This document shows positions 464 through 21,783 of a stretch of 64,000 bases of DNA, one piece after another. The DNA comes from a virus. The stretch's first letter is position 1; each line of letters starts with the position of its first letter. The position numbers were made by a program, and so were the translations under genes. The stretch lies in IMG/VR virus record IMGVR_UViG_3300032164_000001; one strand, written 5' to 3'. The notes beneath the pieces are model-generated. The model was not told the DNA's origin. It made no database searches and was given only the letters and a program-made list of their open reading frames with translations.

Positions 464-464
464 G

Positions 465-533
465 CTATATGCATAAACATCACTCGCCCACCCTCCGGCC
501 CTCAGGCTACATTCAGTCCAGTTCATAAGTCAA
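465..533 (-). promoter_or_regulatory. Promoter cassette copy 1, pointing into the CRISPR array
   Basis: TTGACT (533-528), 18 bp, TAGCCT (509-504), then GGGCCGGAGGGTGGG...GTTTATGCATA. Same layout as copies at 15929, 16990 and 20980. Confidence 0.7.
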
Positions 534-584
534 TAGAAAAGACTCCACCAGGCAGCAAAAACACTTGATGTGGAAAGAAGCCCT

Positions 585-1136
585 CTACGAGACGCGAAGG
601 GGGCACCAGTCCGGCGAAGGCGTGTCCCGCACCTTCTCGTAGAGCAAGCGGTGCGCTTCCTCGAATGCGAGCTTGCCATTTGGAAAGAGCTCACGGCGAA
701 CGGTGGCGATCGGCATGGTTCTGAGCTGTCCGTCATGATGACAGCGTAGAGCATACATGCCGTAGTCATCGCTCACAACGCTGTGTGCACATGAGCCGCA
801 TGAGCTCGGGAGCGGGCCGAGTGAGATGGTTACACCGCAGGTCGGGGTGGGAGTTGGGTCTTTCCCATTCGCTGTGTCATGGCATGAGCTGATCTGTTCT
901 CTGCCAATCTCCGCCAGTTTTCTCGCCAGTGCAGACGCCGGCAGCTTTGCAAAGCCGTGCGTCGTCTCCAAGAGCCCCCTCGCTCGCTCGAAAACCCCAG
1001 CTACTTCCAGGTCGATGAGAGCCGGTATGAGAGTGTTGAAGAGGATACGAGCCTCTTCCTGCCCAGGTGGGTTAGTACTGTCGAGCCATTCGGAAACGGC
1101 TGACAGGTTCGAGACCTGTAGGCGCCTCGGATTCAT
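585..1136 (-). CDS. hypothetical protein, Cys-rich C-terminus
   Basis: 183-aa ORF with CxxC and a terminal PDWCPL, typical of small phage Zn-binding proteins. TAGATG stop-start junction. Confidence 0.65.
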   Translation of the reverse strand: MNPRRLQVSNLSAVSEWLDSTNPPGQEEARILFNTLIPALIDLEVAGVFERARGLLETTHGFAKLPASALARKLAEIGREQISSCHDTANGKDPTPTPTCGVTISLGPLPSSCGSCAHSVVSDDYGMYALRCHHDGQLRTMPIATVRRELFPNGKLAFEEAHRLLYEKVRDTPSPDWCPLRVS

Positions 1137-1168
1137 CTACTCGCCCATCTGCTTGCCCATCTACTCGC
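1134..1168 (-). repeat. 3 x 12-bp tandem repeat (GCGAGTAGATGG-like)
   Basis: Plus strand reads catctactcgc / ccatctgcttgc / ccatctactcgc. Confidence 0.8.
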
Positions 1169-1409
1169 CTGCGGCGCGTTTGGCTCGCTGCCACTGTGGT
1201 GTCTCATGATGCGAGTGGTAGATCTCGAGGAGCCTGCTGGCCAGCAGGAGCCCTCTGAGTTTCACCGGGAGGCAAGCTTCAACGCTGATAGGAATTCCTG
1301 GTACGAGTAGTCTAAGACGGTGCAGGAAGTTTTCACAGAACTGCCTGAACTCCGGATCCCTCTTCAGTTCCAGTTGGGCAAAGTTCACCGTCGATTGGTG
1401 GGTCAGCAA
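1161..1409 (-). CDS. small hypothetical protein (start uncertain)
   Basis: 82-aa ORF filling the gap between the helicase and the 585-1136 gene. Overlaps the helicase 3' end. Confidence 0.4.
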   Translation of the reverse strand: MLTHQSTVNFAQLELKRDPEFRQFCENFLHRLRLLVPGIPISVEACLPVKLRGLLLASRLLEIYHSHHETPQWQRAKRAAGE

Positions 1410-2547
1410 GGTCTGCCCCCGATGGCTCCACGTTGATCATGTCGTACTGGCGGAGCTCACTTTCCTCATACTTTACCATAATTGCAGCCGCGTCAACAAT
1501 ACTTAGTGGCACCAGCGGTCGCCATGCGGGCACCTTCTTGCTACGCGAACCGTCTGTTCCAAAAGCACGTTTAACTTCGCCATCTTTCACGATCATCCCC
1601 TCCTTCTCTAGATCCGCGAGCGCCTCCACGATTCTTTCCTGACGCACTCCAATCATCTCCGCCAGCATCAGGTTCGTCATCGGCTGATCAGAAGAGCGAA
1701 GCGCTGAATAGAGCTTGCTTTTGAAATACCCTCTGACAACGGCCGAGGCGTCCTTTCCATCGAAATACACAAAGGTTGTATGATTCAGTGCCTTGTCTAT
1801 GATTGGCACCGCCGAGAACATGTGCCCCTTCGGTCCATTCCGCTGCTTCAAACTCTCCAGTGTTATGATCTCCGTTGGCTCCGGCAGGCCGAGCTTCTTC
1901 TTGCTCAGCTTGACATGAAGCACTGCATCCGCCCACCCGTACCAAGCAGAGCTTCCACGCAGCGATGCACGATTGCTCTTGCTGTTCTTGTCCCCCCCTG
2001 GCACTTTCGTCTGATGATGAATGATGAGGAACGCGCACTTGTACTCGTCGATCAGTCTGTCGACGGTGCGTCGAAGTGCCTTCGTCTCCTTACTGGAGTT
2101 CTCATCTCCCGAGAAGAAACTGTCGAGGGGATCTAACACCACCAGCATTGGTTTGTGCTTCTTGATCAACCCTTCGAGCTCGATGATATCGGTCGCATCG
2201 TCGAGGCCGAACGGTTGCTGACATATGTAGAGAGGCATGTCGAAGGGATTGACTCCATGTGCTCTGATGTGCGATAGCAGTCGGTCCCTATTGTCAAAGA
2301 TAGATCCCTCCGTCGAATTCAGAAAGACCGGTCCATGCTGCAGCACGTCTATCTGTCGCAACAGGCGCCCACCAGATGCAATCGCAACGCATAAGTCAAA
2401 TGATATTGCAGACTTGTAACTGCCGCCTTCGCCGAACAGGAAGATGCGATTGCACTTCTGCATCATGTCCTTCACGATCCAACGGTTTGGATCTTCCTGC
2501 AGTGACAGCAGTTCGCGTGCAGAATATACTTGATGTTTTCTCGCCAT
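1333..2547 (-). CDS. RepA/RecA-like AAA ATPase (AAA_25-type replicative helicase) with C-terminal winged helix
   Basis: Walker A GEGGSYKS, Walker B LVVLDPL, DEN, IIHH..K and RGSSA motifs. ATG at 2547 has an AGAGGGG RBS. Confidence 0.85.
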   Translation of the reverse strand: MARKHQVYSARELLSLQEDPNRWIVKDMMQKCNRIFLFGEGGSYKSAISFDLCVAIASGGRLLRQIDVLQHGPVFLNSTEGSIFDNRDRLLSHIRAHGVNPFDMPLYICQQPFGLDDATDIIELEGLIKKHKPMLVVLDPLDSFFSGDENSSKETKALRRTVDRLIDEYKCAFLIIHHQTKVPGGDKNSKSNRASLRGSSAWYGWADAVLHVKLSKKKLGLPEPTEIITLESLKQRNGPKGHMFSAVPIIDKALNHTTFVYFDGKDASAVVRGYFKSKLYSALRSSDQPMTNLMLAEMIGVRQERIVEALADLEKEGMIVKDGEVKRAFGTDGSRSKKVPAWRPLVPLSIVDAAAIMVKYEESELRQYDMINVEPSGADLADPPIDGELCPTGTEEGSGVQAVL

Positions 2548-2770
2548 AACCCCTCTTTGACTTTCACCCACTTGAGCATACCCCAATCAGTTTTGTCAAG
2601 CACGACGTGAAATCCTTATTGATGCTCGACATGTCCGTGGTAGGAATTCGTGCGAGTAGAATTCACACCGGATGCACATGGCTATTTCCTGTTGAGCGTC
2701 TGCTGACTTGCACGAAAGCACGTTTTACTTCTTGACTGCCTCCTTGTCGAGCTGATAGGACTGGCAACCG

Positions 2771-5626
2771 ATGCGCCCCATCCCTCCCGACGCTCTCGAG
2801 GGTTCAATTGTATCGTGCCCAACAAAGTGGCGGGGGCGATGGAAGCTCGAGCACTGTCCATCGCAGACACAATTCGAGCTGCTGAAGCAGCATCCGGGCG
2901 TGGTGCCGGGGCAAAGCAAGAACCCCGAGGATTGCGGCTGGTTCGTGCCGCAATCATTGATCGACTCCGGTCGATATCCCGCCAATCTTGAAGACTTTCC
3001 CCCAGAACCAAACAACATCACACCATCTGGCCTTGTACTCAGAGACTATGAAACTCGTGCCGTCACCTTCTGCAGACAGGTTACATTGTATCGCGAAGGC
3101 TGCATCGTCGCCGCCGATCCCGGTTTAGGAAAAGAACAGCCAATTAGCACACCTGTGCTGACACCGACTGGTTATAGACCGATTGGAGATATGGCACCTG
3201 GTGATCTAGTCATTGGAGCCAGTGGGCGTCCAACCGTGGTGCGAGCTGTTTTCCCACAGGGCGTGAAACCGATTTACGAACTCGTATTCAGCGATGGCGC
3301 CACCGCTGCGTGTGGATTAGACCATCTGTGGGCAGTTCAAACGCTGAACGATCGCAAGCGAGGGCACGCCTTTCGCATCATGTCTTTGCGAGCGTTCAAG
3401 GATGACCTGACTCGCGGACGCGGTTTGAAACAAAGCTGGTATTTCGTACCGTTGACACAGCCTATAGTGTATTCGGATCGCACGGATGAATTGCCTATCG
3501 ATCCTTACCTGTTAGGAGTGCTTCTCGGTGATGGCGGCTTCAGAGGGACCGATGTGACTCTGAGCAATCCGGAAAGCGACATTGTGCAACATGTTCGATC
3601 GGCGTGCGCCGGGTACGGAATACATCTTGGTCCGGGTTCCGATTCAATTTCGTATAGATTATCTGGAGTATCCGGAAGTCCTAATACCGTCAAACGTGCC
3701 ATTGAATCCCTTGGTCTGTGGGGCTTGTATTCAGAGGAAAAGTTTGTTCCATCCATGTACCTCTTGGCGAGTCCACAAGCGCGCCTGGAGGTGCTACGTG
3801 GGCTAATGGATACCGATGGGACAATCACGCCAGATGGGCACACATTGCAGTTCGGCACGAGTTCGCCACGGCTTTGCGCCGATGCGACGAACCTGATACG
3901 TAGCCTAGGAGGCATAGCCCGTGTGAGCGACCGTATACCGCATTTTTCATACCGGGGGGAGTACAGAACGGGACTGCGTGCATATGTGGTATCGATGAGA
4001 ATGCCATCTGGACTCGTTCCTTTTTCTTCGGAAAAGCATCACGCGAAATGGATTCCAAATAGCAAGTATCAGCCATCCAGGGCAATACGATCAGTGGAAC
4101 CGCATGGAGAAGAAGAGTGCGTGTGCATTAACGTCTCAGCCCCTGACGGGTTGTATGTGACAGACAACTTTGTAGTGACGCATAATTCTATGATATCATT
4201 GCATTCTTTACACCTGGATGGGTATTTGAACAGACCGGGATTGGTCATCGGGCCGAACATCGCCAAGGGTGTTTGGTGCGACAAGGATTCTGATGCCTTC
4301 AGGCATTATGGTCTGACCATCCTTCCACTGGAAAAGGTGAAAGGCCTTGACGTTGATGTGTTGAGCAGACATACAACGTTCTTCATTCATCACGAACTGC
4401 TCGATGCATGGCAGGGTTGGATATTCGCAAAGTTGTCTCCCACCTGGCTCATTATAGATGAAATACACCTGCTGGCCAATCGAAAAGCACAGCGCTCGAA
4501 TGCTGGCATGCAGATCACCCTGGCCGCCAGTATTGAACGACGATATGGATTGACTGGCACCCCAATACCAAACGAGCGTCTGGAGTTGTGGCATCAACTA
4601 GCCATGGTCCAACCACGACAATGGTCCGCAACCTCGTTTTCCTTTGGTGTTCGCTACTGTAACGGCCACAGGACCGAGGTTGAGGCTGGAGGAGTCGGCG
4701 GCCACTGGGTTTTCGACGGTGAATCCAACGACATGGAGCTCAAGGCCAGATTAGCTGGAACATTCCTTCGATTCACCACGGAGGAAGTGCAACATGAGCT
4801 TCCGCCGATGGAGCGACATGTTGTTGAAGCGGTATGCCATGATGAGGCCTTGCAAGAGGAGTACTCCTTTGCCCAACGAGACATAGTCAAGTACCTGCGC
4901 CATCGCAACAAGAACGTCGAAGAGGAAACTGAGACTATTTCCATCGGTGGTACGACCATCAAGCTGAAGAAGGTCGAACGCAAACCAAAAGCAGTGAGGT
5001 TGGTTTGCATCTCCACGCTGATCGGCTTGCTGTCGAAGATGAAACAGGAGCCAGCACTACAGGCTGTGGATGAGATCATGCACCACCACAATAGGTTGGT
5101 GGTCTTCACGCTTCGCGTCGCAACGGCGGAGTGGATTTTCAACAGCTTGGCTGACCGACTGGCTGCTGGTCAGACCGTCGGTGGCAAGTGTCCAGATCTA
5201 TTCGGCCCGGTGCACGGCGAGATGCACATGGACGAGCGGAAGGCATTGGCAGCCAATTTTGCAGAGGCGCAGAGCGGGATCTACATCGCCACGATGGGCT
5301 CGGCTGGAACTTCCATCAACTCGTTGTCCACGGCCTCATCCGCGTTGCTGGTCGACCTGCACTGGAACACGGCCATCCTCCGTCAGGCAGAGAAGCGAGT
5401 GCATCGTGATGGCTCCAGGGCTTCGCACGTTGACATCTACTACCTCGTGCTACGTGGCACGGTGGACGATCTGTTCATGGAGAAGTTGCGCGAGAAGGCA
5501 GAGCGCGCTGTGAGCCTCGCCGAACGTGACACATCAGGCGTGTCGCTGGTGCGAGATCTGTCGCCGGCCAATTCAGGTCCGGTTGACGTTGACCTACTCT
5601 GCGAACGCCTGATGGACATGGATTGA
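2771..5626 (+). CDS. SNF2-family (DEXH) helicase containing an intein
   Basis: LRDYE Q-motif region, DPGLGK|S Walker A (split by the intein), IIDEIH, LTGTP, and QAEKRVHR motif VI. Confidence 0.9.
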   Translation: MRPIPPDALEGSIVSCPTKWRGRWKLEHCPSQTQFELLKQHPGVVPGQSKNPEDCGWFVPQSLIDSGRYPANLEDFPPEPNNITPSGLVLRDYETRAVTFCRQVTLYREGCIVAADPGLGKEQPISTPVLTPTGYRPIGDMAPGDLVIGASGRPTVVRAVFPQGVKPIYELVFSDGATAACGLDHLWAVQTLNDRKRGHAFRIMSLRAFKDDLTRGRGLKQSWYFVPLTQPIVYSDRTDELPIDPYLLGVLLGDGGFRGTDVTLSNPESDIVQHVRSACAGYGIHLGPGSDSISYRLSGVSGSPNTVKRAIESLGLWGLYSEEKFVPSMYLLASPQARLEVLRGLMDTDGTITPDGHTLQFGTSSPRLCADATNLIRSLGGIARVSDRIPHFSYRGEYRTGLRAYVVSMRMPSGLVPFSSEKHHAKWIPNSKYQPSRAIRSVEPHGEEECVCINVSAPDGLYVTDNFVVTHNSMISLHSLHLDGYLNRPGLVIGPNIAKGVWCDKDSDAFRHYGLTILPLEKVKGLDVDVLSRHTTFFIHHELLDAWQGWIFAKLSPTWLIIDEIHLLANRKAQRSNAGMQITLAASIERRYGLTGTPIPNERLELWHQLAMVQPRQWSATSFSFGVRYCNGHRTEVEAGGVGGHWVFDGESNDMELKARLAGTFLRFTTEEVQHELPPMERHVVEAVCHDEALQEEYSFAQRDIVKYLRHRNKNVEEETETISIGGTTIKLKKVERKPKAVRLVCISTLIGLLSKMKQEPALQAVDEIMHHHNRLVVFTLRVATAEWIFNSLADRLAAGQTVGGKCPDLFGPVHGEMHMDERKALAANFAEAQSGIYIATMGSAGTSINSLSTASSALLVDLHWNTAILRQAEKRVHRDGSRASHVDIYYLVLRGTVDDLFMEKLREKAERAVSLAERDTSGVSLVRDLSPANSGPVDVDLLCERLMDMD
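3134..4186 (+). mobile_element. Intein (351 aa, class-3-like) with LAGLIDADG homing endonuclease, inserted in the helicase P-loop
   Basis: Starts EQPISTPVLTPTG, block B DHLW, LAGLIDADG motifs LLGVLLGDG and LRGLMDTDG, block F CVCI, ends VVTHN followed by Ser. Removal restores GLGKS. Confidence 0.9.
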
Positions 5627-5724
5627 GTGTTATGTGTGACATTCGTGGGCCACCTTGAGTTGAAACTGGCGTAGTAGCACTGTAGACAATAGCGTCAATC
5701 CAATAACCCAACTGGAGCTGAGCA

Positions 5725-5740
5725 TGTTGCATCTGCAACA
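5725..5740. promoter_or_regulatory. Palindrome TGTTGCA-TC-TGCAACA abutting an RBS (possible operator)
   Basis: Perfect 7-bp inverted repeat immediately before GGAGG (5741-5745). Confidence 0.4.
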
Positions 5741-5751
5741 GGAGGTATTCT

Positions 5752-6606
5752 ATGGCCATGCAGCCCCAGATCTACAATGACCCAGATTTGCATGTGCCAG
5801 GAGAACGTCAGAGTCAGGGAGTGACAGTCTTCCTGTTCGGCGCGGTTGGCACATGGAAGACGACATGGGCTGGTCAGTGGCCAAAACCGATCTTCCTGAG
5901 TGTTGGCGTGGAAGGCGGGGACGACGCACTGGCACAACTTCCGGCGCTCTACGGGCTACCGGTCCCGAGAGTGTACAGCATCACTTCACCAAAGATGATG
6001 GTGGAGAAGGTGAAACAGATCGCTCGCGACCACCAGGCAATGGATGTCAACACGGTCGTCGTCGATTCGATCACGTATTACGTGGACATGTGGGTTGCAG
6101 CGCTGATGAGCGGACGCTATGCAGACCCCAAGATTCGGGAGAAGATCGAGAAGGCAGGTGGAGAAGCCACGAATCTGACGATGCGCGACTGGGGCCTGTT
6201 GGCCATGCACATCAGAGATCTGGCGATGATGCTCCACAAGACACCGCTCAACATCATCTGGACGTCACTCGAAAAGGAGATGAAAGAACAAAACGACGAA
6301 ATGGGTAAAAGCAGAGTGGTAGCAGTAGAACCGTACATCAGGGGCGAGTCGTACATCAAACTGCCAGGCCTGTGCAAGATGATCATCCATGCGTACAAGG
6401 AGCTGCGTCCGGATCCGAATGTCCCGGGGCGTATGCTCGCGCATCCGATCTATTACACGTCGCCCAACTATCTGACGAAGATAGTGCGGCACAAGTACGG
6501 CAACGCGTTTCCCGAGGGAAGGCTCATCGATCCACAATGGGGCGATGTTCCAACTTTCAGTGCAATCTGGAACAGCATCGGTCGGTTCGTCTATGTCACA
6601 CAGTGA
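5752..6606 (+). CDS. AAA_24 / Sak4-like phage NTP-binding recombination protein
   Basis: GAVGTWKTT Walker A, VVVDSIT Walker B, DWG motif, strong RBS, followed by an SSB-like gene. Confidence 0.8.
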   Translation: MAMQPQIYNDPDLHVPGERQSQGVTVFLFGAVGTWKTTWAGQWPKPIFLSVGVEGGDDALAQLPALYGLPVPRVYSITSPKMMVEKVKQIARDHQAMDVNTVVVDSITYYVDMWVAALMSGRYADPKIREKIEKAGGEATNLTMRDWGLLAMHIRDLAMMLHKTPLNIIWTSLEKEMKEQNDEMGKSRVVAVEPYIRGESYIKLPGLCKMIIHAYKELRPDPNVPGRMLAHPIYYTSPNYLTKIVRHKYGNAFPEGRLIDPQWGDVPTFSAIWNSIGRFVYVTQ

Positions 6607-6643
6607 GCTCCGACCACAACCAGCAGTAAAACAGGAGAGAAGC

Positions 6644-7432
6644 ATGTCCGAAGAGTATCTGCCTATCAATCTGATGAACGTCACGGCGGCATCAAGTGGC
6701 TTCGACTATCCGAACGGGAAGTACCTGTTCGAGGTCATCGACTCGGAGGTCAAGACCAACACGGACGGCGAAGGCAAGCGCCTGGTGACAGACAACGTCA
6801 TCCTCATGGGCCCTGGTGCCGGCAACACGCAGTTCCAGAATCAGAAGATGCCCGGCAGCTACCAGCTGTCAGACAAAGGGGCGCAGTTCTTGAAGCGCTT
6901 CTTCCTCGTGTGCGGTATCACCGAGGAGTTCATTCAGGCCAACGGTGGGAATGTCAACAAAGAGTGGTTGAAGAAGCGCCAGTTCGTGGGTACCATCGGT
7001 AAGAACAAGGAGGGCTACTGTAACATCAACAACGAGAGGCCGGCCTCGGAATGGAACAAGCTTGAGGTGCCCAGGACCGCCGCACCGACGGCGTCTGGTC
7101 CGCCTTCGAGCCTGTTGCAGCCCAACCCGGCAGCACAGATGCCCACACCGATGTCCTACGTGCAGCCACCGATGATGATGCAACCGCCGATGCAGCAGCA
7201 ACAGATGATGCAGCAGCCGCCGATGCCACAGCAGATGCAGCAGATGCAGCAGCCGCAGTACGCTCAGCAGCAGATGCAGCAGCCGCAGTACGTGCAGCAG
7301 CAACCGCAGCCGCAATATGCTCAACCCAGCATGCCAGCGCCGCAGGCCTTGCCGACGCCGCAGATGCCCCCACAGCAGATGGGTGTATTCCCGGCTCCGG
7401 TACCTCCTCCGGGTAGCGTTGGACAGAGGTAG
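6644..7432 (+). CDS. putative single-stranded DNA-binding protein with Gln/Pro/Met-rich tail
   Basis: RBS CAGGAG. The N-terminal P.GKY...V..SEVK pattern resembles phage DUF669-type SSBs found after Sak4-like genes. Low-complexity C-terminus. Confidence 0.65.
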   Translation: MSEEYLPINLMNVTAASSGFDYPNGKYLFEVIDSEVKTNTDGEGKRLVTDNVILMGPGAGNTQFQNQKMPGSYQLSDKGAQFLKRFFLVCGITEEFIQANGGNVNKEWLKKRQFVGTIGKNKEGYCNINNERPASEWNKLEVPRTAAPTASGPPSSLLQPNPAAQMPTPMSYVQPPMMMQPPMQQQQMMQQPPMPQQMQQMQQPQYAQQQMQQPQYVQQQPQPQYAQPSMPAPQALPTPQMPPQQMGVFPAPVPPPGSVGQR

Positions 7433-7444
7433 ACACTCGAAACC

Positions 7445-7505
7445 AAAGTGGGCGGCTGGGCAAACATGGGGCGCATCAACCCTACCGGTTCAAGCCGCCT
7501 GCTTT
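7445..7505 (+). other. Intergenic stem-loop (13-bp stem, 35-nt loop)
   Basis: AAAGTGGGCGGCT (7445-7457) pairs with AGCCGCCTGCTTT (7493-7505), including two G-U pairs. Confidence 0.5.
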
Positions 7506-7524
7506 ATCTTCACGGACAGAAAAA

Positions 7525-7779
7525 ATGGCAGACCTAGAAGTGAAATGCAGTGATTGTGAAGAAGTATTCGTCGTGACAGATGGCGAGCAACAGTTCCTCC
7601 GTGAGACATTCGGTGAAACGTTCTCGGCACCAAAACGTTGCAAGGCATGTCGGCAAAAACGCAAGGCGGCGAAAGGACAGCCAAGAGAGCAAGTACAGCA
7701 AGAACCACCACGGCCGTCAGAGGTGGGTAATACACGGAGAGAAGGAAAAGGGCGCAAGCGGCAGCGTAGGGATGAATAG
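7525..7779 (+). CDS. zinc-ribbon protein (zf-trcl-like)
   Basis: CSDC...F..T.GEQ.F...PKRCKACR. Confidence 0.8.
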   Translation: MADLEVKCSDCEEVFVVTDGEQQFLRETFGETFSAPKRCKACRQKRKAAKGQPREQVQQEPPRPSEVGNTRREGKGRKRQRRDE

Positions 7780-8324
7780 TGCTCGGAGATGGTGGATATT
7801 ATCACGGTCTGCTATCACAGCCGGACTGCGAGAATTGCCCCCTGCGTTATGACATAAAAGTAATGCCGGATGGGCCTATTCCAGCTCGTATAGCTTTTGT
7901 GGGAGAAGAACCTGGACTGACCGAACTCAGAGAAGGAAGAGGTTTTGTAGGCCAGTCTGGCCAGCTGCTTTGGTACATGGCTTCAGAGGTGGGCATCACT
8001 CGTGATATGGTATGGGTTTCCAACGCAGCGATTTGCCAGGCTAGAAAAATAAAGCTGCTCAACAAGGCTGAATTGCCTTTATTGAAAGTCAAGGCTGCGG
8101 CTGCTCAGTGCTGTAGAAGACGGTTACTGGAAGAACTGGCAATAGTAAATCCTACAGTGGTTGTGCCACTCGGCAATTGGGCGTTGTGGGCCATATCGGA
8201 TATCCCCAATGCTCGTATCTACGCATACCGTGGGTCGAGGATGGAAATAAATTTGCGAGAACAGGCGTGGAAAATAGCCATGGGTTTGGCTAGGGCTCCC
8301 ATGCGACATGTGAAGGAAGAGTAG
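7779..8324 (+). CDS. uracil-DNA glycosylase family-4-like protein (N-terminal part, lacks motif B)
   Basis: CENCPL Fe-S motif, VGEEPG...E..EGRGFVGQSG motif A, NAAIC, and P.VVVPLG..A. Confidence 0.85.
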   Translation: MLGDGGYYHGLLSQPDCENCPLRYDIKVMPDGPIPARIAFVGEEPGLTELREGRGFVGQSGQLLWYMASEVGITRDMVWVSNAAICQARKIKLLNKAELPLLKVKAAAAQCCRRRLLEELAIVNPTVVVPLGNWALWAISDIPNARIYAYRGSRMEINLREQAWKIAMGLARAPMRHVKEE

Positions 8325-10330: not shown

Positions 10331-10347
10331 AAAGCAAGGGAGATAAA

Positions 10348-11145: not shown

Positions 11146-11150
11146 ATCTC

Positions 11151-12009: not shown

Positions 12010-12011
12010 AC

Positions 12012-12641
12012 ATGAGTCCATTTCAAGGTTTCATACCGCATAGGGTAGATCTGTTTGATAGGGCAATGAATAGCTTTCACTCCACGCTCACTGCTATTGG
12101 CAGTTACAAAAGCGCCATCACCAGCGCCATACAGAATCCTGGCGTGCTGGTTGACGACGCCGTTCTGCAAACTCTGTACGGTGAGTACTTGAAATGCCGT
12201 GGTGCACTTCTTATGGCTTTCCAGGGTGACATCCCATTCATGGATCAGCTATTCTCCGAGATCATGGCAGCAATCCAGACTACACAGGATCAAGAACCGC
12301 CGAGCGAACCAGTGCATCTTGGCGCCGAACTGTTTCAAGTGAATGATCCCGAAGAGAGAGAAGGAAAGAAAAGCAGGCCAAGCCCGACATCAAGACTGAA
12401 CTACGACGGGATCAGCAATGCGGATTGCCTGGATGCGTTGCAGACCATTGACGAAACGCTCGATCTGCTTCCAACTTTACCGGATGCAGCTGCAGATTTC
12501 GCGGATAGTGTAGAACAGAAACTGACCAGCATGCGCGAAGGCATCATTGGCAAAGGACGGGCCACTGAAAAACAAATAATAGCCATAGAGAACATGCAAC
12601 GTGGGACACTGAAGTGGACCGAGCACAATGAGTATGATTGA
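12012..12641 (+). CDS. hypothetical protein
   Basis: ORF with GGGAG RBS, coupled to the DinG gene. Confidence 0.65.
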   Translation: MSPFQGFIPHRVDLFDRAMNSFHSTLTAIGSYKSAITSAIQNPGVLVDDAVLQTLYGEYLKCRGALLMAFQGDIPFMDQLFSEIMAAIQTTQDQEPPSEPVHLGAELFQVNDPEEREGKKSRPSPTSRLNYDGISNADCLDALQTIDETLDLLPTLPDAAADFADSVEQKLTSMREGIIGKGRATEKQIIAIENMQRGTLKWTEHNEYD

Positions 12642-14644
12642 GTGCTATGCCAATTGATCGTTATGACCATTACATAGATCAAATATTGGCCCCGGGAGGC
12701 CTACTCGAGCGCTCTATGCAAGGGTATGAGTCCAGGCCTGGTCAGTTGCGTCTGGCGCATGAGATAGATATCGCCATGTGCTTCGGAGAACACATTATCG
12801 CAGAAGCTGAATGTGGCATAGGAAAGACTGCTGCTTATGGCGTACCAGCGATTGCACACGCCTGTTGCAACAAAATGCGTTGTGCGATTGTGACGGCGAA
12901 CATTCAGCTTCAGGAGCAGTTGGTCAAGAAGGACCTTCCATTGCTTCATCGCATACTGCCGTTCAAGTTCGAATTCGCTCTACTCAAAGGACGCAACAAC
13001 TATGCATGTAGAGACAGGTTCTGGCAGGGCCAGGCTGATGATTCATTTGCCAAGATCAGAATGCATCTCGACGGAAGACAGCAACTGGATGCGGCATTGA
13101 AGTGGATGAAAACGACTCTTACCGGGGATAAATCCGAGTTGAGCCCTGAGCCACCGTTCGAGATATGGAGCGCAATATCCACAGACAGCGACGAATGCAA
13201 GAGAAATCGTTGCACGTACAAGGACGAATGCTTTGCAAACGCTGCCAGGAACACGGCGCTACGGTCGCACATCATAGTGACCAACTACCACACTTTGTTC
13301 TCCTACATGAGACGGGATGACAATCCTCTGATGCTGCCGCATATGGTCCTCGATGAGGCACACGAAGTGGCCAGGATAGCCAGAGATTTTATGGGTTTCA
13401 AGTTCACGCAGTACTCCATCGGAAAGGTAACACGATGGCTGCAAGAACTCGGGAAGAGAGGTCTACCGTTGCGTGGTAGTTTGGAAGCAGCGAACACTGC
13501 ATTCTTCGCGGCAAGTGGCAGAATGTTGGGTCAACTGAAACGAGAGGCTGCCAGGAGAAAGAAAGGTAGCGATTGCCGACTGACTGTGCCCAATTGGACC
13601 AAAGATCATCTACCTCTGATGGCCATACTGTCTGAATGCAAACAACTGGCTGCAGATCGCTTCAGCAGTCCTGATGCTGACCCGGCTTCCAGAATAGATG
13701 CCGAGCAGGCATTCAACAAGATTTCAGAAATACTGAAACAGCTGCACGGAGGCGTGGAACTGAATGACAATAACTCTGTATACTGGCTCGAGGAGACAGG
13801 CAAGCGCAAGAATGTTGCACTACAGGCCAAGCTGATAGACGTCAGTGCAATCCTACACGAGAGACTATTCAGGGCTACGCGGTCGATAACGCTTTCGTCA
13901 GCCACTCTCAGCGTTGACAAATCGTTCTCCTTCATCCAGCGAGAGCTCGGTGTGCCAGAGAATGCCAAGCAGTGCATCGTCACAAGTCCTTTCAATTTAT
14001 ACGAGCAGTCTCTGTTCGTCGTGCCGCCAGACTCTCCTTTGCCGCAAGATGAACGTCGATTTCAACAGGCCACGGCTGATGCTATAGAGCATGTCGCAAC
14101 GGCTTGCGGAGGTCGCACACTTGGCCTTTTCACTTCCAACAAGAATCTGAGAGCTGTACGCGATCTACTGATCGCCAGGAATCTGCCTTACAGACTACTG
14201 GCACAGGACGGAGAGCTATCCCGAGCGGAGCTCTATCAGATCTTCAAGAGTGATGAGTCATCCATCTTGCTTGGTGTTGCCTCGTTCTGGACCGGCGTGG
14301 ATGTACCGGGCGAAGCGCTCGTTGGCCTGGTGATCGATAAGCTACCATTCCCCAACCTCAACGATCCTTTCATCGATGCACTGGAAGAGAAGTGGAAGAA
14401 GGCAGCATTCAATCGTTACAGTCTGCCACACACCATTATCACATTGAAACAAGGCATTGGTCGATTGATCAGACGCAAGGACGACTACGGCGTGGTTGTA
14501 CTGGTTGACAGTCGTGTGCTGCAGAAGAGATACGGCGTAATAGTGACACGCTCTCTTCCACCAATGCGTAGCACACCGCACATGACTGACATCGTTCCAT
14601 TCATTGAGAAGCACAGAGCAGCGCGAGCGGCGCGGAGTGCGTAA
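12638..14644 (+). CDS. dinG: DinG/YoaA-family ATP-dependent DNA helicase
   Basis: YESRPGQ Q-motif, AECGIGKT, KGRNNY, four Fe-S-type Cys, DEAH, SATL, FWTGVDVPG, IDKLPF, QGIGRLIR. Confidence 0.92.
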   Translation: MSAMPIDRYDHYIDQILAPGGLLERSMQGYESRPGQLRLAHEIDIAMCFGEHIIAEAECGIGKTAAYGVPAIAHACCNKMRCAIVTANIQLQEQLVKKDLPLLHRILPFKFEFALLKGRNNYACRDRFWQGQADDSFAKIRMHLDGRQQLDAALKWMKTTLTGDKSELSPEPPFEIWSAISTDSDECKRNRCTYKDECFANAARNTALRSHIIVTNYHTLFSYMRRDDNPLMLPHMVLDEAHEVARIARDFMGFKFTQYSIGKVTRWLQELGKRGLPLRGSLEAANTAFFAASGRMLGQLKREAARRKKGSDCRLTVPNWTKDHLPLMAILSECKQLAADRFSSPDADPASRIDAEQAFNKISEILKQLHGGVELNDNNSVYWLEETGKRKNVALQAKLIDVSAILHERLFRATRSITLSSATLSVDKSFSFIQRELGVPENAKQCIVTSPFNLYEQSLFVVPPDSPLPQDERRFQQATADAIEHVATACGGRTLGLFTSNKNLRAVRDLLIARNLPYRLLAQDGELSRAELYQIFKSDESSILLGVASFWTGVDVPGEALVGLVIDKLPFPNLNDPFIDALEEKWKKAAFNRYSLPHTIITLKQGIGRLIRRKDDYGVVVLVDSRVLQKRYGVIVTRSLPPMRSTPHMTDIVPFIEKHRAARAARSA

Positions 14645-15263
14645 GAAGTTGGCTGACGCTGCACAGAGAGCCAATTCCTGGCTACTGGCCTACAAAGACC
14701 TGGTGCTGGGCCTGGATTTGCCTTGGGCTGAACCGAATTGGACCACCAGCGACTTCGGAGAAGTGGTTCTGGAATGGTGGTTCGACACACGGAAGGCCAC
14801 GCTTTACGTTTCTGGAAAGTCAATCGAGTATCTCTGCTCGGACGACAGCTGGATGGACGATGGAGCGGTTCGAGATATGTTGCACATGCTCGACATCTGG
14901 CGCTGGCTTCTTGGCGCACGTTGCAAACGTCTACCGGCCATGACAGCACTGGACAAGTTCGAAGAGCTCGGAACCAACTGGGGCGGTTATACCACCCCCC
15001 GTGCGGCTTTACTTGCAGCAGCACGAGACGTCCTGCGAACATCAACGGGTGCCTTCACCCCAGATCCTGAGGTCACTCTGGAAGTCGACGGTGACATACA
15101 ACTGATCTGGAAGAATGGCGCACGTGAGTTAGGAGTACGCATTACGGACGAGCTTCTCGTGCTCTTCTGGAAGGCGACCGGCCTCATCTCCGAAAACGGT
15201 ACTTTGCCGAGGGATGCCAGCAAGGAGATCAAAGAGCTCCTCGACTGGCTACTCGATGGATGA
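14604..15263 (+). CDS. hypothetical protein (start possibly GTG 14637)
   Basis: 219-aa ORF with two similar halves (GEVVLEWW / GDIQLIW). Confidence 0.6.
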   Translation: MRSTEQRERRGVRKKLADAAQRANSWLLAYKDLVLGLDLPWAEPNWTTSDFGEVVLEWWFDTRKATLYVSGKSIEYLCSDDSWMDDGAVRDMLHMLDIWRWLLGARCKRLPAMTALDKFEELGTNWGGYTTPRAALLAAARDVLRTSTGAFTPDPEVTLEVDGDIQLIWKNGARELGVRITDELLVLFWKATGLISENGTLPRDASKEIKELLDWLLDG

Positions 15264-15463
15264 ATCAGATGACAACACCTGGGCACTACAAGAAGAAACA
15301 CCGCTGTCTCTGCAGGTACTGCAACGAAGAGTTCTTTGCCTGCTCGCCAAAAGCGGTGAAGTGCGAGAAGGAGCGATGCCATTCGGAAGCCAAGCGCCTA
15401 GAACGCAAGCGCAAGCGTGCGCAATTGACCATCACAGCACAAACAGCGGAGGAGCAAGAGTGA
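15260..15463 (+). CDS. small Cys-rich (zinc-finger-like) protein
   Basis: CRYC...C....C, ATGA overlap with the previous gene. Confidence 0.6.
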   Translation: MNQMTTPGHYKKKHRCLCRYCNEEFFACSPKAVKCEKERCHSEAKRLERKRKRAQLTITAQTAEEQE

Positions 15464-15918
15464 CAGTCTGGTTGACCGAGGCAGATCGCCAAGCCTACAT
15501 GAAAGCCCTTGATACAACCGTGGCGGATCTCGACATCGTGGACTACCTCAAGATACTCAACGGTATCGATGGCGTATGCACTGTCTCATCGTGTCTAGGC
15601 TGGCATGCCAATGGAGAAGGACGTGTCAACTTCGACGTGGGCTTTGTCATCCTGCATCTGTCCGAGCAGAAGGGCAGACTTCTCGAGCGAGCAGCAGACG
15701 ATCTATCTAGCTTCTGTGAGGGTCTCGCCATGGGCATGGAAAAGGAGTGGCTCTACAGCCCACACAACAGACCTGAGGCCCCTTGCATCGAGTGCCAGCC
15801 GGTCGAATGCCGAGGCAAGTGCCAACCGGTTGTCTGGCACACGGTCAAGTTCAGCGGCCGCGTCTGCCTGGGATGCCTCAGGGCTCTGTGCAATCTGCTG
15901 ATGGGAATGTCGGCCTGA
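15460..15918 (+). CDS. hypothetical protein with Tyw3-like TxSSCxG motif
   Basis: GGAGGAG RBS plus GTG start. DLDIVDYLKILN...TVSSCLG. Confidence 0.6.
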   Translation: MTVWLTEADRQAYMKALDTTVADLDIVDYLKILNGIDGVCTVSSCLGWHANGEGRVNFDVGFVILHLSEQKGRLLERAADDLSSFCEGLAMGMEKEWLYSPHNRPEAPCIECQPVECRGKCQPVVWHTVKFSGRVCLGCLRALCNLLMGMSA

Positions 15919-15928
15919 CGCTTTTTTC

Positions 15929-15998
15929 TTGACAGACTCCTTCTTGTTGGCATAAAATACGGGTGGTTGGGTGGGTAAGAGGTTTGTATGGGTATGCT
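15929..15998 (+). promoter_or_regulatory. Promoter cassette copy 2
   Basis: TTGACA (15929-15934), 18 bp, TAAAAT (15953-15958), then GGGTGGTTGGGTGGG...GTTTGTATG. Confidence 0.8.
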
Positions 15999-16415
15999 TT
16001 TTATTGGTATATCAATCACTTGCGAGTAGACAACACAGGCACCAGAGCGAACTACGGCACGGTCGAACCCGTCTATTCTGTCTGGTGCACCTCGTGGACA
16101 TCGAGCCAAGACAACTCCACGACGTGGTGCAGCATCTCGAATGAGTTGACGACCGATGTGACGAACACGACGTTCGCCATGGCCTGGGAGTCCTACACAT
16201 CTACGTGTTTCTGTGCTGGCAAACTACAACCGGATGAACGTGAGAAGCGCGCTCAGGCACGACAGCAAGCTCCAGCACCATTGCTTCATTGCTGGCTTGA
16301 GACATTGCCGGCACGAAGGCATCGTATTCGCGACGAGAGGGCGCCGAACAGATGGGGGCGACAGCTGAAGTACGGAACGGCGAATGGACTACGGCCTGTT
16401 CCGATGCTGTGCTAA
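15984..16415 (+). CDS. hypothetical protein (TTG start within the promoter cassette, start uncertain)
   Basis: Open frame directly downstream of cassette copy 2, beginning TTG TAT GGG TAT GCT TTT. Confidence 0.5.
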   Translation: MYGYAFYWYINHLRVDNTGTRANYGTVEPVYSVWCTSWTSSQDNSTTWCSISNELTTDVTNTTFAMAWESYTSTCFCAGKLQPDEREKRAQARQQAPAPLLHCWLETLPARRHRIRDERAPNRWGRQLKYGTANGLRPVPMLC

Positions 16416-16459
16416 GCTGCTCTCTTAGATCGCTGTACGTGTGAATCAAGGAGTTCGTC

Positions 16460-16696
16460 ATGAAACATGAACCGAGTCGTGTAAAATCCTGTCCCGATTG
16501 CGACGGTGAAAATGAAGACTGCCCGACCTGCGAAGGCTGCGGAGAGGTCTACTACTTCACGGCCGATGAGCTTGTAGAGATAGACACCCGTCTGAAAGCT
16601 TTCGAGGGCGGCAGGCTCACTGGGGAGCAGAGCAAGCGATTCGTCTCGTTTGCATTGAAAGCAATCGCGTTGCGCCCAACGCCTACTTCCTGGTAG
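16460..16696 (+). CDS. small zinc-finger protein (CxxCxG repeats)
   Basis: CPDCDG...CPTCEGCG, AAGGAG RBS. Confidence 0.7.
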   Translation: MKHEPSRVKSCPDCDGENEDCPTCEGCGEVYYFTADELVEIDTRLKAFEGGRLTGEQSKRFVSFALKAIALRPTPTSW

Positions 16697-16889
16697 GAAT
16701 CCTTCGATCGAACGACTCGACCGTGCGCCCGTAGAGCTGCAGCAGCTGGGTGTACAGGATGTCGAAGTCGGCCTTGTACTCTTCAATCTGGGTGAGATCG
16801 AGCGGAGCGTTGTTCCTCAGGGGCAACATGAAGCGGTCGAGCCCGTCTTTTATCTCTGACCAATCAACCAGCAACTCCTCTGTTCGCAT
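16683..16889 (-). CDS. small hypothetical protein (alternative in-frame TTG at 16934)
   Basis: CAGGAG RBS before MRTEELL, downstream of cassette copy 3. Confidence 0.6.
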   Translation of the reverse strand: MRTEELLVDWSEIKDGLDRFMLPLRNNAPLDLTQIEEYKADFDILYTQLLQLYGRTVESFDRRIPTRK

Positions 16890-16927
16890 GTTATCAATTT
16901 CTCCTGTTGATTCCTCTTCCTGCCCCC

Positions 16928-16990
16928 CATACAAACTGCCTCCCGCCCAACCCGACATTCAGTTTATCCTGACATTATGCTACAAGTCAA
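16928..16990 (-). promoter_or_regulatory. Promoter cassette copy 3
   Basis: TTGACT (16990-16985), 18 bp, TAAACT (16966-16961), then GGGTTGGGCGGGAGG-CA-GTTTGTATG. Confidence 0.75.
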
Positions 16991-17037
16991 CACTAATCCT
17001 ATGTATTGATCCGATCTGTCCTAAGTTATTGTTTCAA

Positions 17038-18555
17038 CTAGCCAATGACGGACATACGGGCGGAGATGCCTTCTCCTGAATGCCACCCATCGTCTTCCTC
17101 GGCAACCTCGCTGTAGCGAAGCACGCGAATCGCATATGCAAAAGCGTCACCGAGGTCCTTGTCTCCACTGGCAGTGAAGGACAGCAGCTGACTGATGAGA
17201 TCTCCACGTCGTGCGACGTCAGGGTTGCTGCGAGGGTCGAGGTTCGGATTGAAGAAGATGAGCTTGGACTCGAAGGCCGGCAGGGTGGCCATGAGTCGGA
17301 GCTCTTTGCTTTGATTGCCTGGGCGCACGGGGAAAATGGGCAATGGCACCTCTGATCGTTCCATCAAGTACTCACGCAGTGCGCGTTGGTAACCTGTTTC
17401 CTCGATGGCAATCATGTCCGGACGCCAACGGCGTGCCTCGGCGATGATGGCCTGTCCCTGTTCGGTGAATCCGAGCTTGTTGTGCCAGGCGTCGGCGATG
17501 AAGGAGAAGTTACGCTCGCGGTCGTGCAACACGGTGACACAGGCGAAGTAGGATGATTGACGCTTGTCGGTGATGGCCAAGTCGTAGGCCTGAACGCAGT
17601 ACAGTCGGCGTGGGTCTCCCAGGAGATCTGCATCATAGAATTGAATGTGCTCCGACTTAACAATGGCCATGGAGGCAGAGATCGCCTTGCAGCGATACGC
17701 CCTATCGTACTCCATGGGCCCCACTTCTCTACGCAGACTCATTAGAGCTTGCCGATGCCATCGACCGGGCCATAGTGGAAGATATGGGTCTTCGTCGGTG
17801 CCTACAGCATAGATGTAGGACTTCCATTCAGGATTGACTCTCAATGATGCGATAACATCTTCGGAGTGATGAGGTGTGCCTATCGATATAGCTACACCAT
17901 CCTCTTCCAGCATAGGCAATACTTCAGCGTAAACTTTCTTCTTGATTGATTCTCTAAATTGAGGATAGACTAGTGCTGTTCTGAAGTCAGAAATATCGTC
18001 GAGTAGAACCATATCTGCCCTACCGCCTTCGACCGAACTCATGATGCCGGAGGCTTCGAGTGAGGGATCCTTCGATTGTACACTACGTGAAATTTGTATG
18101 GAGCTCTTGTGCCAAATCCCTTTATGGGCTGGAATGAGGTCTGGGAATACAAGTCTGACTAGTTTGTTTGTCTTTATCATGTCTGATATTAGAGACAGCC
18201 TCTCGCGTGCCTTTTCATCTGACTGAGTGAATAGCTTGATTCTTATGTTAGGATTTGTTCCCAGTTTCCAGATTAGAAATGCGAGTGCGACCGAGGTTTT
18301 GGCGTGCGATTTGGCTGCCTCGATTTGCACACGTCTATACTTCTGGAAATGTGCCAACCATTCACGATGGAATGGTTCCAGTTTGATACGCTTGCCTTGC
18401 GTGGTGCGCCAGATGAATTCCATGAAGGCTGCAGGGTCTTTCCGAGCGGCCAAGATCTGTGTCTTCAACCTGGCCGCCGAGGCCAGCATCATTCTGGCTC
18501 GGGCTGCCTCCTTCTGCTCGCCTTCCGGCATCGGGTGTTTCTTGCCACCGGGCAT
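17038..18555 (-). CDS. terL: terminase large subunit
   Basis: Walker A-like AAKSHAKT, GGRADMVLLDD, IGTPHH.ED, LWP.RW, nuclease YDLA, IEETGYQ, K..R, and DKDLGDA. Confidence 0.9.
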   Translation of the reverse strand: MPGGKKHPMPEGEQKEAARARMMLASAARLKTQILAARKDPAAFMEFIWRTTQGKRIKLEPFHREWLAHFQKYRRVQIEAAKSHAKTSVALAFLIWKLGTNPNIRIKLFTQSDEKARERLSLISDMIKTNKLVRLVFPDLIPAHKGIWHKSSIQISRSVQSKDPSLEASGIMSSVEGGRADMVLLDDISDFRTALVYPQFRESIKKKVYAEVLPMLEEDGVAISIGTPHHSEDVIASLRVNPEWKSYIYAVGTDEDPYLPLWPGRWHRQALMSLRREVGPMEYDRAYRCKAISASMAIVKSEHIQFYDADLLGDPRRLYCVQAYDLAITDKRQSSYFACVTVLHDRERNFSFIADAWHNKLGFTEQGQAIIAEARRWRPDMIAIEETGYQRALREYLMERSEVPLPIFPVRPGNQSKELRLMATLPAFESKLIFFNPNLDPRSNPDVARRGDLISQLLSFTASGDKDLGDAFAYAIRVLRYSEVAEEDDGWHSGEGISARMSVIG

Positions 18556-18590
18556 AGGAACTAGACTCCTTTTTCCGTAGCAACCATGGC

Positions 18591-19580: not shown

Positions 19581-19738
19581 CTCAAGCTCTCCATGTTTTT
19601 CCGATAGTAGCAGGCATATGTGCCACTTACAAGCACACTTTGGCACTTTGTGACATCACTGACACGGTTTTGCTTGCAAAGCTAAAAGTTCGATGGTAGT
19701 AGAAATAAGGAACACCTGATGACAAGGAGCAACATCCA

Positions 19739-20080
19739 GTGTCACCAGTGGACATGAGCTTGGTCAAATCGACGCCGAGATCGAAGCAGAAGCATCACAG
19801 GTCCGGGACGAAGCGTGCTCGGCTCCAGTCTCGACTGACCCAGACCATGCGCGTGCGTGGGTACATGATGGTGTGCGAGGTAGCAGAAAAGATTGGAATT
19901 CATCACATAACAGTCTACCGATGGATCCACGATGGTAAGATCAAAGCCAAGGATTTCTCAGGGGCCTACTACGTCGACTGGTTGTCTGTCATGGACTACC
20001 TCGGCGACGTGGCCGAGATTCTGGGTTTACACCCAGACGAACCTACAAGAGACATCGAGGCCGGCAATGTTGAAGGATGA
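19739..20080 (+). CDS. Xis/MerR-like helix-turn-helix (HTH_17) DNA-binding protein
   Basis: YMMVCEVAEKIGIHHITVYRWIHDGKIKA, AAGGAG RBS. Confidence 0.85.
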   Translation: MSPVDMSLVKSTPRSKQKHHRSGTKRARLQSRLTQTMRVRGYMMVCEVAEKIGIHHITVYRWIHDGKIKAKDFSGAYYVDWLSVMDYLGDVAEILGLHPDEPTRDIEAGNVEG

Positions 20081-20315
20081 GATGCAATCGAAGTTGGCCA
20101 GAGTATTTCGTGCTATATACGCACTGCTGCTGGGAGCGATCGGACTTGTCTTCATCGTGATTTTCTTGACTGCGCTCATCTGGCCTCTGGCCTTGTACGT
20201 TACAGAGCAGCACATCGGCTTCCTTCGACTGTCCGCTGTCGTTCTCGTCGCTCTGATCCTGCAGTTGCCAACCCTTGCAGTTCTCAGTGCGAAGAAGAAA
20301 GGCCAACCGTTATGA
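20067..20315 (+). CDS. small membrane protein (2 TM segments)
   Basis: Two hydrophobic stretches and a basic tail. Confidence 0.6.
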   Translation: MLKDEMQSKLARVFRAIYALLLGAIGLVFIVIFLTALIWPLALYVTEQHIGFLRLSAVVLVALILQLPTLAVLSAKKKGQPL

Positions 20316-20590
20316 CCTATCGCTACGAGCTCCCCGCTGTCGAGCGTATACTCGAACGAATCAGGGCGCTGTCTGTTCCGGACCTGCTCAAGTTCATCGT
20401 CGATGCCTGTTGCTCGATTGTTCCTTCCACCGAGGCAGCGAATGCACAGGACATCTGGGCTGAGTGGAAGGAACGCTCGCTATGGGAAAAGCAGGCGGTG
20501 CTCTTCGGCCTGACGCTGGACATGGCCAGGATCGTCAGCGGTTGCGCCAAGACTCTTGCTGAGCAGGCGAGAGTTGAAGAGACTCTCTGA
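20312..20590 (+). CDS. hypothetical protein
   Basis: ATGA-coupled ORF. Confidence 0.6.
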   Translation: MTYRYELPAVERILERIRALSVPDLLKFIVDACCSIVPSTEAANAQDIWAEWKERSLWEKQAVLFGLTLDMARIVSGCAKTLAEQARVEETL

Positions 20591-20937
20591 TGCCTGATGA
20601 GTTGCTTGAGTATCTGAGTGCCATCGTCTCGGATCGACGCAATGGACAGGACGTGCAGCGTCTCGCCGCCCGTCTGCTGGCCAGCTGGCGAGCGGGCCTT
20701 GTTCTGCCTCCGAGCAGTCTGAGAGAGCTGCGTCGAATACTGGAGCGTCCTGTCCCCTGTTCCAGACTGCAGAGCGATGGCTCGTGCCTCTGGCTGCGCA
20801 AATACGCTAACGTCGAGGGTCTCCCACTGCCAGAGGCTGGCAAACGCGCCTTTTGCCATCGTCAGCTCAACGGTACAGAAGCTCAGCGCTACGACCAGTG
20901 CAACGGTTTCAGCAAGCGACTCGCCTCGAAGGAATAG
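20590..20937 (+). CDS. hypothetical Cys-containing protein
   Basis: TGATG-coupled ORF. Confidence 0.6.
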   Translation: MPDELLEYLSAIVSDRRNGQDVQRLAARLLASWRAGLVLPPSSLRELRRILERPVPCSRLQSDGSCLWLRKYANVEGLPLPEAGKRAFCHRQLNGTEAQRYDQCNGFSKRLASKE

Positions 20938-20979
20938 ACACCATCCATCATCGGCCTGGCGAATCGGTGTCGATTTTTC

Positions 20980-21048
20980 TTGACAGTTCACTCCGGCATA
21001 ATGTAAAATATGGGTGGTTTGGGTGGGTTAAGGTTTGTATGCATATGC
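20980..21048 (+). promoter_or_regulatory. Promoter cassette copy 4
   Basis: TTGACA (20980-20985), 18 bp, TAAAAT (21004-21009), then GGGTGGTTTGGGTGGG...GTTTGTATGCATATGC. Confidence 0.8.
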
Positions 21049-21781: not shown

Positions 21782-21783
21782 GT

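Follow-up and report, generated by a model that had tools for sequence, protein, structure and literature searches.

A recurrent candidate promoter with a G-run leader ahead of variable cargo, including a CRISPR array, in a clade of large tailed phages

The 64,000 nucleotides analyzed here (IMG/VR virus record IMGVR_UViG_3300032164_000001, hereafter the window) are a section of a large tailed-phage contig, and the same large terminase (TerL) protein is also recorded on a contig of 180,372 bp. An initial annotation had proposed that a portable cassette of promoter, ribosome-binding site and start codon occurs four times in this stretch, ahead of a CRISPR array and of accessory genes, and all four sites are present as described. 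Each consists of a sigma70-type promoter, a block of four G-runs and the motif GTTT(G)TATG. Copy 1 lies on the minus strand at 462..540, with the -35 hexamer TTGACT at 533-528, an 18-nt spacer, the -10 hexamer TAGCCT at 509-504, the G-runs GGGCCGGAGGGTGGG at 501-487 and the box GTTTATGCATATAGCAT at 478-462. Copy 2 (15919..16001, plus strand) opens with a T-tract and continues through TTGACA (15929-15934), TAAAAT (15953-15958), the G-runs (15961-15975) and AAGAGG to the box GTTTGTATGGGTATGCTTTT (15982-16001), while copy 4 (20970..21052, plus strand) likewise has a T-tract, TTGACA (20980-20985), TAAAAT (21004-21009), G-runs (21012-21027) and the box GTTTGTATGCATATGCTTTT (21033-21052). Copy 3 (16928..16998, minus strand) is made up of TTGACT (16990-16985), TAAACT (16966-16961), the G-runs GGGTTGGGCGGGAGG (16953-16939) and GTTTGTATG (16936-16928). 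The latter sequence occurs exactly three times in the window, each time at copy 2, 3 or 4, and is represented by GTTTATG in copy 1.

The promoter pattern TTGACN-18 nt-TANNNT has exactly four matches in the window (533-504 (-), 15929-15958 (+), 16990-16961 (-) and 20980-21009 (+)), where about 1.0 would be expected by chance and 3 of 100 shuffled sequences reach four; the pattern as it had been written initially, TTGAC plus 18, has no match if taken literally, as the 18 nt are counted from the end of the full hexamer. When the G-runs are added, the four observed composites compare with none in 300 first-order Markov simulations, so that the concern that the motif might be common in shuffled sequence can be set aside. 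A nhmmer profile built from 11 copies returned these four sites (E-values from 3e-10 to 2e-8) and no further copy in the window, the next match having an E-value of 8. A G-run at 2788-2777 (-), considered as an extra copy, was rejected as the proline codons of an SNF2 gene. An independent repeat finder paired copies 2 and 4 (D4) and copies 2 and 3 (I4). The copies agree with the sigma70 -35/-10 consensus at 9-11 of 12 positions, except for copy 1 with its weaker -10 element TAGCCT, and no other sites in the first 40 kb match the sigma70 type as well as copies 2 and 4 (11/12). These two are also 88% identical over 50 bp and have the T-tract in common, while the other window copies resemble them at the motif level only, and no similarity was found between the window cargoes past the cassette end. 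The spacer of 18 bp, initially described as fixed, is constant within the window but not in relatives, where 6 of 11 copies have 17 bp.

All four window copies are intergenic and follow a co-directional operon, at a distance of 10-51 nt from the stop codon of its last gene. Copy 2 begins 10 nt past the stop (15918) of the last gene of a replication module (2771-15918, plus strand), copy 3 begins 47 nt past the stop codon (17038) of TerL (17038-18555, minus strand), and copy 4 begins 42 nt past the stop (20937) of a 115-aa gene, the last one in a plus-strand stretch (19739-20937) with an HTH gene and a holin-like gene. Copies 2 and 3 converge on each other in the interval that separates the replication module from TerL. 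Copy 3 is predicted from sequence to be a complete promoter-gene-terminator unit: its cargo (16667..16889, minus strand) comprises a 68-aa gene (16889-16683) with GGAG and an ATG at 16889 and a gene-like codon score of 0.20 (true genes: 0.22 ± 0.09), and behind it a terminator-like hairpin (16682-16667) with a T-rich tail. The cargo of copy 2 (15984..16696, plus strand) consists of an ORFan frame of 143 aa (15984-16415, codon score 0.006) with zero homologues among 5.8 billion proteins, and of a 78-aa CxxC zinc-finger gene (16460-16696) preceded by an AAGGAG site; this unit has no clear terminator. Behind copy 4 (21053..21379, plus strand) a weakly coding frame of ~220 nt (21086-21310, codon score -0.05) is followed by a terminator-like hairpin (21363-21379) located inside a convergent 182-aa gene, at the 3' end of the last gene of the tail operon (21233 to the window end, minus strand). 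There were no PHROG hits. Copies 2 and 4 also have in common a mini open reading frame (ORF) at 15988-16029 and 21039-21059, starting 5 nt after AAGAGG or TAAGG and reading M-G-M-L-F... (13 aa) in copy 2 and M-H-M-L-F-Y (6 aa) in copy 4, which may encode a leader peptide or reflect mere conservation of the DNA.

The initial annotation had further read the TTG-TAT of the box as a start that is in frame with the downstream ORF in copies 2, 3 and 4. This is literally true of the listed ORFs, but argues only weakly for a translation start, and a built-in ribosome-binding site and start codon did not hold up: copy 1 has no ORF, the gene of copy 3 comes with its own GGAG and ATG at 16889, and codon scores are close to zero for the ORFs that follow copies 2 and 4, the copy 2 ORF being in addition without a homologue. 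A TTG start 4 nt after GGGAGG is possible in copy 3. As a general feature the built-in start codon was rejected, given that the starts in relatives (see below) are found at distances of 0-90 nt from the box, in different frames and sometimes with a GGAGG of their own, and the same TTG meets a stop codon within a few codons. The evidence on start sites therefore reduces the unit to a promoter plus a leader, and as such, repeated ahead of variable cargo that includes a CRISPR array, it is supported.

The CRISPR array (1..449) adjoins copy 1 and extends past the window start. It is composed of a 36-nt repeat and spacers of variable length (35-40 nt), as is usual for class 1 arrays, and its promoter-proximal unit is reduced to the 3' part of the repeat. 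Copy 1 is oriented into the array, with ~48 nt between the predicted transcript start and the truncated first repeat. If the minus strand is transcribed, the retained part would be the 5' handle of the first CRISPR RNA, and it is plausible, though unproven, that copy 1 drives the array in its functional orientation. Since the repeats are degenerate at both visible ends, the leftmost one included, polarity is not readable from degeneracy. No spacer matched the window or any retrieved relative locus, and the repeat had zero exact matches in the collections of genomic and viral contigs searched for a host. The array is absent from the relative contigs examined, and no repeat-like sequence of the anti-CRISPR RNA type was found behind copies 2-4. 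The cas-less array appears to be wired to a phage promoter.

Searches with a single helicase or TerL sequence yielded no close relatives in IMG/VR, and a metagenome scan gave only distant relatives among the matches listed. Relatives were retrieved by a TerL alignment search, with identities to the window protein of 72% (G001, 111 kb), 61% (G002) and 63% (G003), compared to 43-45% in more distant contigs, and a further contig from the sample of G001 (G006, 82 kb) was found with the composite pattern. Altogether 15 copies of the element are present in five phages (four in the window, five in G001, two in G002, one of which is degenerate, one in G003 and three in G006), whereas in G004 and G005 (TerL identity 44-45%) the only matches were read as chance. 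As far as these mostly incomplete contigs show, the element is confined to the closer sub-clade. Its consensus starts with (T)TC-TTGAC(A/G/T), 17 or 18 nt, TA..CT and GGA.GGC and continues with GGG.TGGG.GGG.GG, about 8-11 G/T-rich nt and (G)TATGCTAT; in G001, all four occurrences of GGGNGGGNGGG sit behind such promoters. A T-tract precedes the -35 element in window copies 1, 2 and 4 and in G2_14698, and in 8 of the 15 copies there is only TTC in front of it. Pairwise identities among the 15 copies are 40-66%, with values within genomes (0.52) close to those between genomes (0.47), which indicates that the copies are maintained by selection on function rather than being products of recent duplication. 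The loci of G001 and G006 have a GC content of 64-68% as compared to ~53% in the window, and the architecture common to both shows that the motif has been kept against a changing base composition.

Around the window cassettes, synteny with G001-G003 extends over the helicase, TerL and the gene upstream of it, and the HTH gene, whereas the interval between helicase and TerL and the region 20980-25387 have no homology to the relatives. The comparison of cargo between related phages that had been suggested initially thus gave non-homologous DNA behind the cassettes within syntenic flanks. The window, G001 and G002 all retain a convergent pair adjoining TerL, with enclosed genes that differ, and a shared gene of 76/78 aa is found directly behind a cassette in G002 and upstream of a cassette in G001. 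The cargo in relatives includes a lipoprotein gene with its own Shine-Dalgarno (SD) sequence, zinc-ribbon-like peptides, unknown genes and one long ORF. The 153-aa ORF right after TerL in G001 (L043, 11523-11984) has a GGQ motif (GGKGGQ), seen by eye, that resembles release-factor or peptidyl-tRNA-hydrolase domains. The region 20980-25387 (4.4 kb), which has no counterpart in G001-G003, has the copy-4 region as one border and also spans genes of 233 and 182 aa and most of a 1033-aa DUF5907 fibre-like protein. Only the first ~67 residues of this protein are conserved, and its receptor-binding end looks like it has been swapped.

In all of IMG/VR, the pattern TTGACN{18,19}TANNCTGN{5,7}GGGNGGGNGGG matched only G001, G002, G006 and one sequence that is shared by two AT-rich contigs and lacks the box. 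The latter (L074 at 2685 and L075 at 12431) consists of an identical promoter-like sequence followed by GGGGAGGGTGGGG; its spacer holds a hairpin, its tail is A/T-rich, and it appears to have no relation to the phage clade. G001 was the sole true match in a search for the G-block plus GTATGCTAT. Among bacteria and archaea, with one genome per species (n = 185,579), eight single composite matches were found in unrelated metagenome-assembled genomes, all with weak profile scores and none with the box, which we take to be chance level. Along with L074/L075, L093-L100 and L101-L103 were judged to be chance matches. That the motif might simply be a common host promoter, as the initial annotation had considered, is therefore not borne out in 185,579 species, although the host itself was not identified. 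Judged by this distribution, the predicted promoter class is specific to the clade rather than common among bacteria.

In all 15 copies four G-runs with loops of 1-3 nt stand on the non-template strand; the runs are retained, whereas any of A, T and C can occupy the loop positions. Three of the runs are GGG and one is GG in most copies, those of the window included, and G3 and G2_14698 contain two runs of each length. Between +1 and about +40 the leader contains 42% G, 27% T, 16% A and 15% C, compared to 27% G and 27% C in the window overall. Folding of the first 90 nt of RNA gave z-scores from -1.85 to +1.35 and no common hairpin, longer folds behind copies 2 and 4 were no better than shuffled sequences, and an Rfam search of the entire window yielded nothing at gathering score, nor did the surroundings of copies 2-4 match any family at E ≤ 1. 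A leader hairpin or riboswitch was rejected, as folds matched shuffles and Rfam was empty. The distance between the -10 element and the paired G-runs varies by 3-5 nt, which argues against a fixed contact with RNA polymerase and for a role after initiation.

We consider it probable, at roughly 0.6, that the four window copies belong to a promoter class peculiar to the clade rather than representing a mobile repeat, each being read by the host polymerase with its primary sigma factor. The conserved first ~45 nt of the transcript would then carry, after a GC-rich discriminator, four G-runs, a G/T-rich linker and a (G)TATGCTAT-like box. Sitting behind the last gene of a conserved module, each unit would start an independent short transcript into variable DNA, which holds small genes of ORFan or moron type, a single CRISPR array and in some cases the 3' end of an operon running toward the unit, and unrelated cargo would in this way receive the same timing and the same 5' end. 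We infer both the promoter activity of the cassettes and the early timing of their transcripts. As to the leader, we tentatively place ahead of other roles, at clearly less than even odds, a 5'-terminal RNA element, either a G-quadruplex in which one run is short or a polypurine or SD-like stabilizer that binds the 30S subunit, which would protect or tune every transcript. An effect on initiation or promoter escape, through the GC-rich discriminator, the G start and the purine-rich initial transcribed sequence, is a possible but doubtful second choice; a site for a phage-encoded factor seems unlikely and a role of some other kind more unlikely still. It is tempting to speculate, although we regard it as a long shot, that the leader might work as a switch, built on a guanine-vacancy or DNA:RNA hybrid G-quadruplex, with guanine nucleotides, K+ or a phage helicase unwinding G-quadruplexes as its signal. 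Such a switch would place small host-takeover genes, antisense RNAs and the CRISPR array under one structural control, and no G-quadruplex regulon would have been described before it for a virus of bacteria. We know of no precedent for one in bacteria or phage, although no search was aimed at it.

Several observations weigh against this account of promoters for accessory genes with a common RNA leader. The ORFs that follow copies 2 and 4 look non-coding by their codon scores. The repeat next to copy 1 is truncated, and the array could be read from its other end, which would make the transcript antisense. Two copies in G006, at 49528 (-) (L080) and 51377 (+) (L086), point into genes on the opposite strand, one of which encodes a lipoprotein-like protein of 166 aa, and have no co-directional ORF behind them, so that driving accessory genes can only be part of the story. 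Among the copies analyzed, only those of G006 were seen to point antisense. For the leader, G4Hunter scores of 1.55-1.65 at the G-blocks are above the usual threshold, but coding sites in the window score as high, and with the fourth GGG run absent the canonical G-quadruplex (four runs of at least three G, loops of 1-7 nt) is not attained. GGAGG is present in 8 of the 15 G-blocks and GGGTGGG or GGGCGGG in the others, and an SD-like stabilizer is therefore unlikely as a general explanation. The non-coding scores behind copies 2 and 4 and the orientation of the two G006 copies would be expected of antisense or convergent devices that fire into the 3' end of an oncoming operon and silence or terminate it by collision or double-stranded RNA, with TerL, tail genes, replication genes and possibly the array as targets and with small ORFs that are incidental. 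Such devices would also account for the position of all four window copies behind the last co-directional gene, with copies 2 and 3 converging and copy 4 facing the end of the tail operon, and for the conservation of the convergent pair in G001 and G002. However, the copy 3 gene and the zinc-finger gene behind copy 2 look real and have ribosome-binding sites, hairpins stand between the convergent units, and in the relatives several copies stand ahead of co-directional genes equipped with an SD sequence of their own, the lipoprotein gene among them. We hold antisense action to be unlikely as the general explanation, but for part of the family it is a serious rival, and one that does not exclude the clade-specific promoter class.

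The G-runs could, on the other hand, act on the DNA or co-transcriptionally, where a G-quadruplex in the non-template strand or in a DNA:RNA hybrid, or an R-loop, would form right behind the start site and gate elongation or, as at R-loop origins, prime replication. The invariant four runs with their short loops on the non-template strand (15/15 copies), C-poor flanks, the G4Hunter scores and the lack of a competing hairpin are all compatible with this, and hybrid G-quadruplexes downstream of start sites are described for eukaryotes (PMC3905843). We nevertheless find it improbable, with only three GGG runs, with other window sites equal on G4Hunter, with run positions that vary by 3-5 nt relative to the -10 element, and with a copy number too high for replication origins. 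Still less credit is given to cassettes that serve as recombination sites and shuffle cargo between phages, with promoter activity being secondary, as in the promoter-early stem-loop (PeSL) elements discussed below. The location in variable regions, beside ORFans and at synteny breaks, the different order of the 76/78-aa gene and the cassette in G001 and G002, and the close similarity of copies 2 and 4 would all be consistent with shuffling. However, identities are low, within genomes nearly as much as between them, and exact common words of ~10 nt are too short for homologous exchange, the variable regions reach past the cassettes on both sides, and a stem-loop terminator, which is a defining part of PeSLs, is lacking. 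Accordingly, the claim that the cassettes turn "captured DNA" into a unit was not upheld, recombination being doubtful except for copies 2 and 4. Finally, TTGAC, TANNNT and a G-rich ribosome-binding site are each common on their own, and four ordinary promoters with G-rich SD regions might look alike by chance. This we consider next to negligible in view of the simulations (0/300), the profile E-values (1e-8 to 1e-10) and the architecture conserved in four other phages across 53% and 64-68% GC, and several G-blocks are too distant from a start codon to be SD sequences.

The replication module encodes an SNF2 helicase with a LAGLIDADG insert, AAA_24, UDG, PolA, an amidase and a DinG/XPD-type helicase, and the tail operon a tape-measure protein besides the DUF5907 protein. 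In the SNF2-type helicase (2771-5626) the LAGLIDADG-like domain lies between residues 339 and 396, which points to the insertion of an intein or homing endonuclease. Enlargement is also seen in several homologues of TerL (863-869 aa), one of which (P0038) has LAGLIDADG and intein Pfam domains. An ORF at 6545-7432 contains a degenerate Q/P/M-rich repeat tract (7148-7371) with periods of 9-39 nt. The DinG/XPD-type helicase (12638-14644, DEAD and Helicase_C_2 domains) is conserved in G001 and relatives. Members of this family unwind G-quadruplex DNA and R-loops, and the co-occurrence of this helicase with G-run leaders is a lead only.

Repeated early-promoter cassettes are already known from T4-type phages, and the initial annotation had drawn this analogy. 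The closest are the PeSL cassettes of phages RB49 and phi1 (Arbiol et al., 2010, PMC2839356), which also consist of many copies per genome of a strong sigma70-type promoter and are concentrated in hyperplastic regions, as a rule immediately after an upstream stop codon and before ORFans, occasionally also inside conserved modules (PMC2839356). The cassettes described here share this location, in hyperplastic regions and upstream of ORFans. PeSLs differ in having a stable polyG/polyC stem-loop that terminates upstream transcription and in ending with the SD sequence and start codon of the next gene (PMC2839356), whereas the conserved part of our cassettes is the G-run leader with the TATGCTAT-like box inside the transcript. 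No terminator-like site was found at any cassette, and the G-runs have no polyC partner; as the defining stem-loop terminator is absent, the cassette is not a PeSL. Recombination between PeSLs is reported for RB49 and phi1 (PMC2839356), but our copies, at 40-66% identity, are probably too diverged for that, copies 2 and 4 excepted. The likeness to T4-type elements therefore stands as far as a repeated promoter ahead of variable cargo is concerned, but extends neither to the stem-loop nor, probably, to recombination. The literature searched contains no promoter class whose conservation reaches ~45 nt past the transcript start. With ~95 bp the cassette is a compact, synthesizable element with which effects of a 5' G-tract on initiation, RNA stability and structure can be probed, and it marks accessory and antisense transcription units in a clade of uncultured large phages.

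The polypurine stabilizer of Hue, Cohen and Bechhofer is said to stem from an early RNA of phage SP82. Together with STAB-SD, it offers a functional analogy for the leader (Agaisse and Lereclus, 1996; Hue, Cohen and Bechhofer, 1995; both as cited in PMC3997798): both are reportedly purine-rich, SD-like tracts at the extreme 5' end of a transcript that act independently of the gene. They differ from the pattern GGG-N-GGG-N-GGG with any loop base found here, which is not what pairing with the anti-SD sequence would select. Promoter-proximal and hybrid G-quadruplexes (PMC3905843) similarly have clustered G-runs with short loops on the non-template strand right after the start, but are eukaryotic, whereas in the bacterial-virus setting of our copies one run is only GG and the structure is putative. 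Both comparisons are to be taken as functional analogies only.

Two further comparisons concern the cargo. Morons, as reportedly defined by Juhala et al. in 2000, are promoter-gene-terminator units inserted between conserved genes of lambdoid and other tailed phages. Copy 3 corresponds well to this description, being a predicted complete unit inserted after TerL with cargo that differs between relatives, and copy 4, whose hairpin lies in the convergent gene, and copy 2 do so in part. Morons differ in that they have no common promoter and leader, while here one head is reused for unrelated cargo, a CRISPR array and antisense directions. Like a CRISPR leader, copy 1 directly adjoins the array and points into it. 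CRISPR leaders, however, are long and AT-rich and precede an intact first repeat, whereas the leader of copy 1 is G-rich, covers ~48 nt and is followed by a truncated repeat, and elements of the same type head protein-coding units elsewhere.

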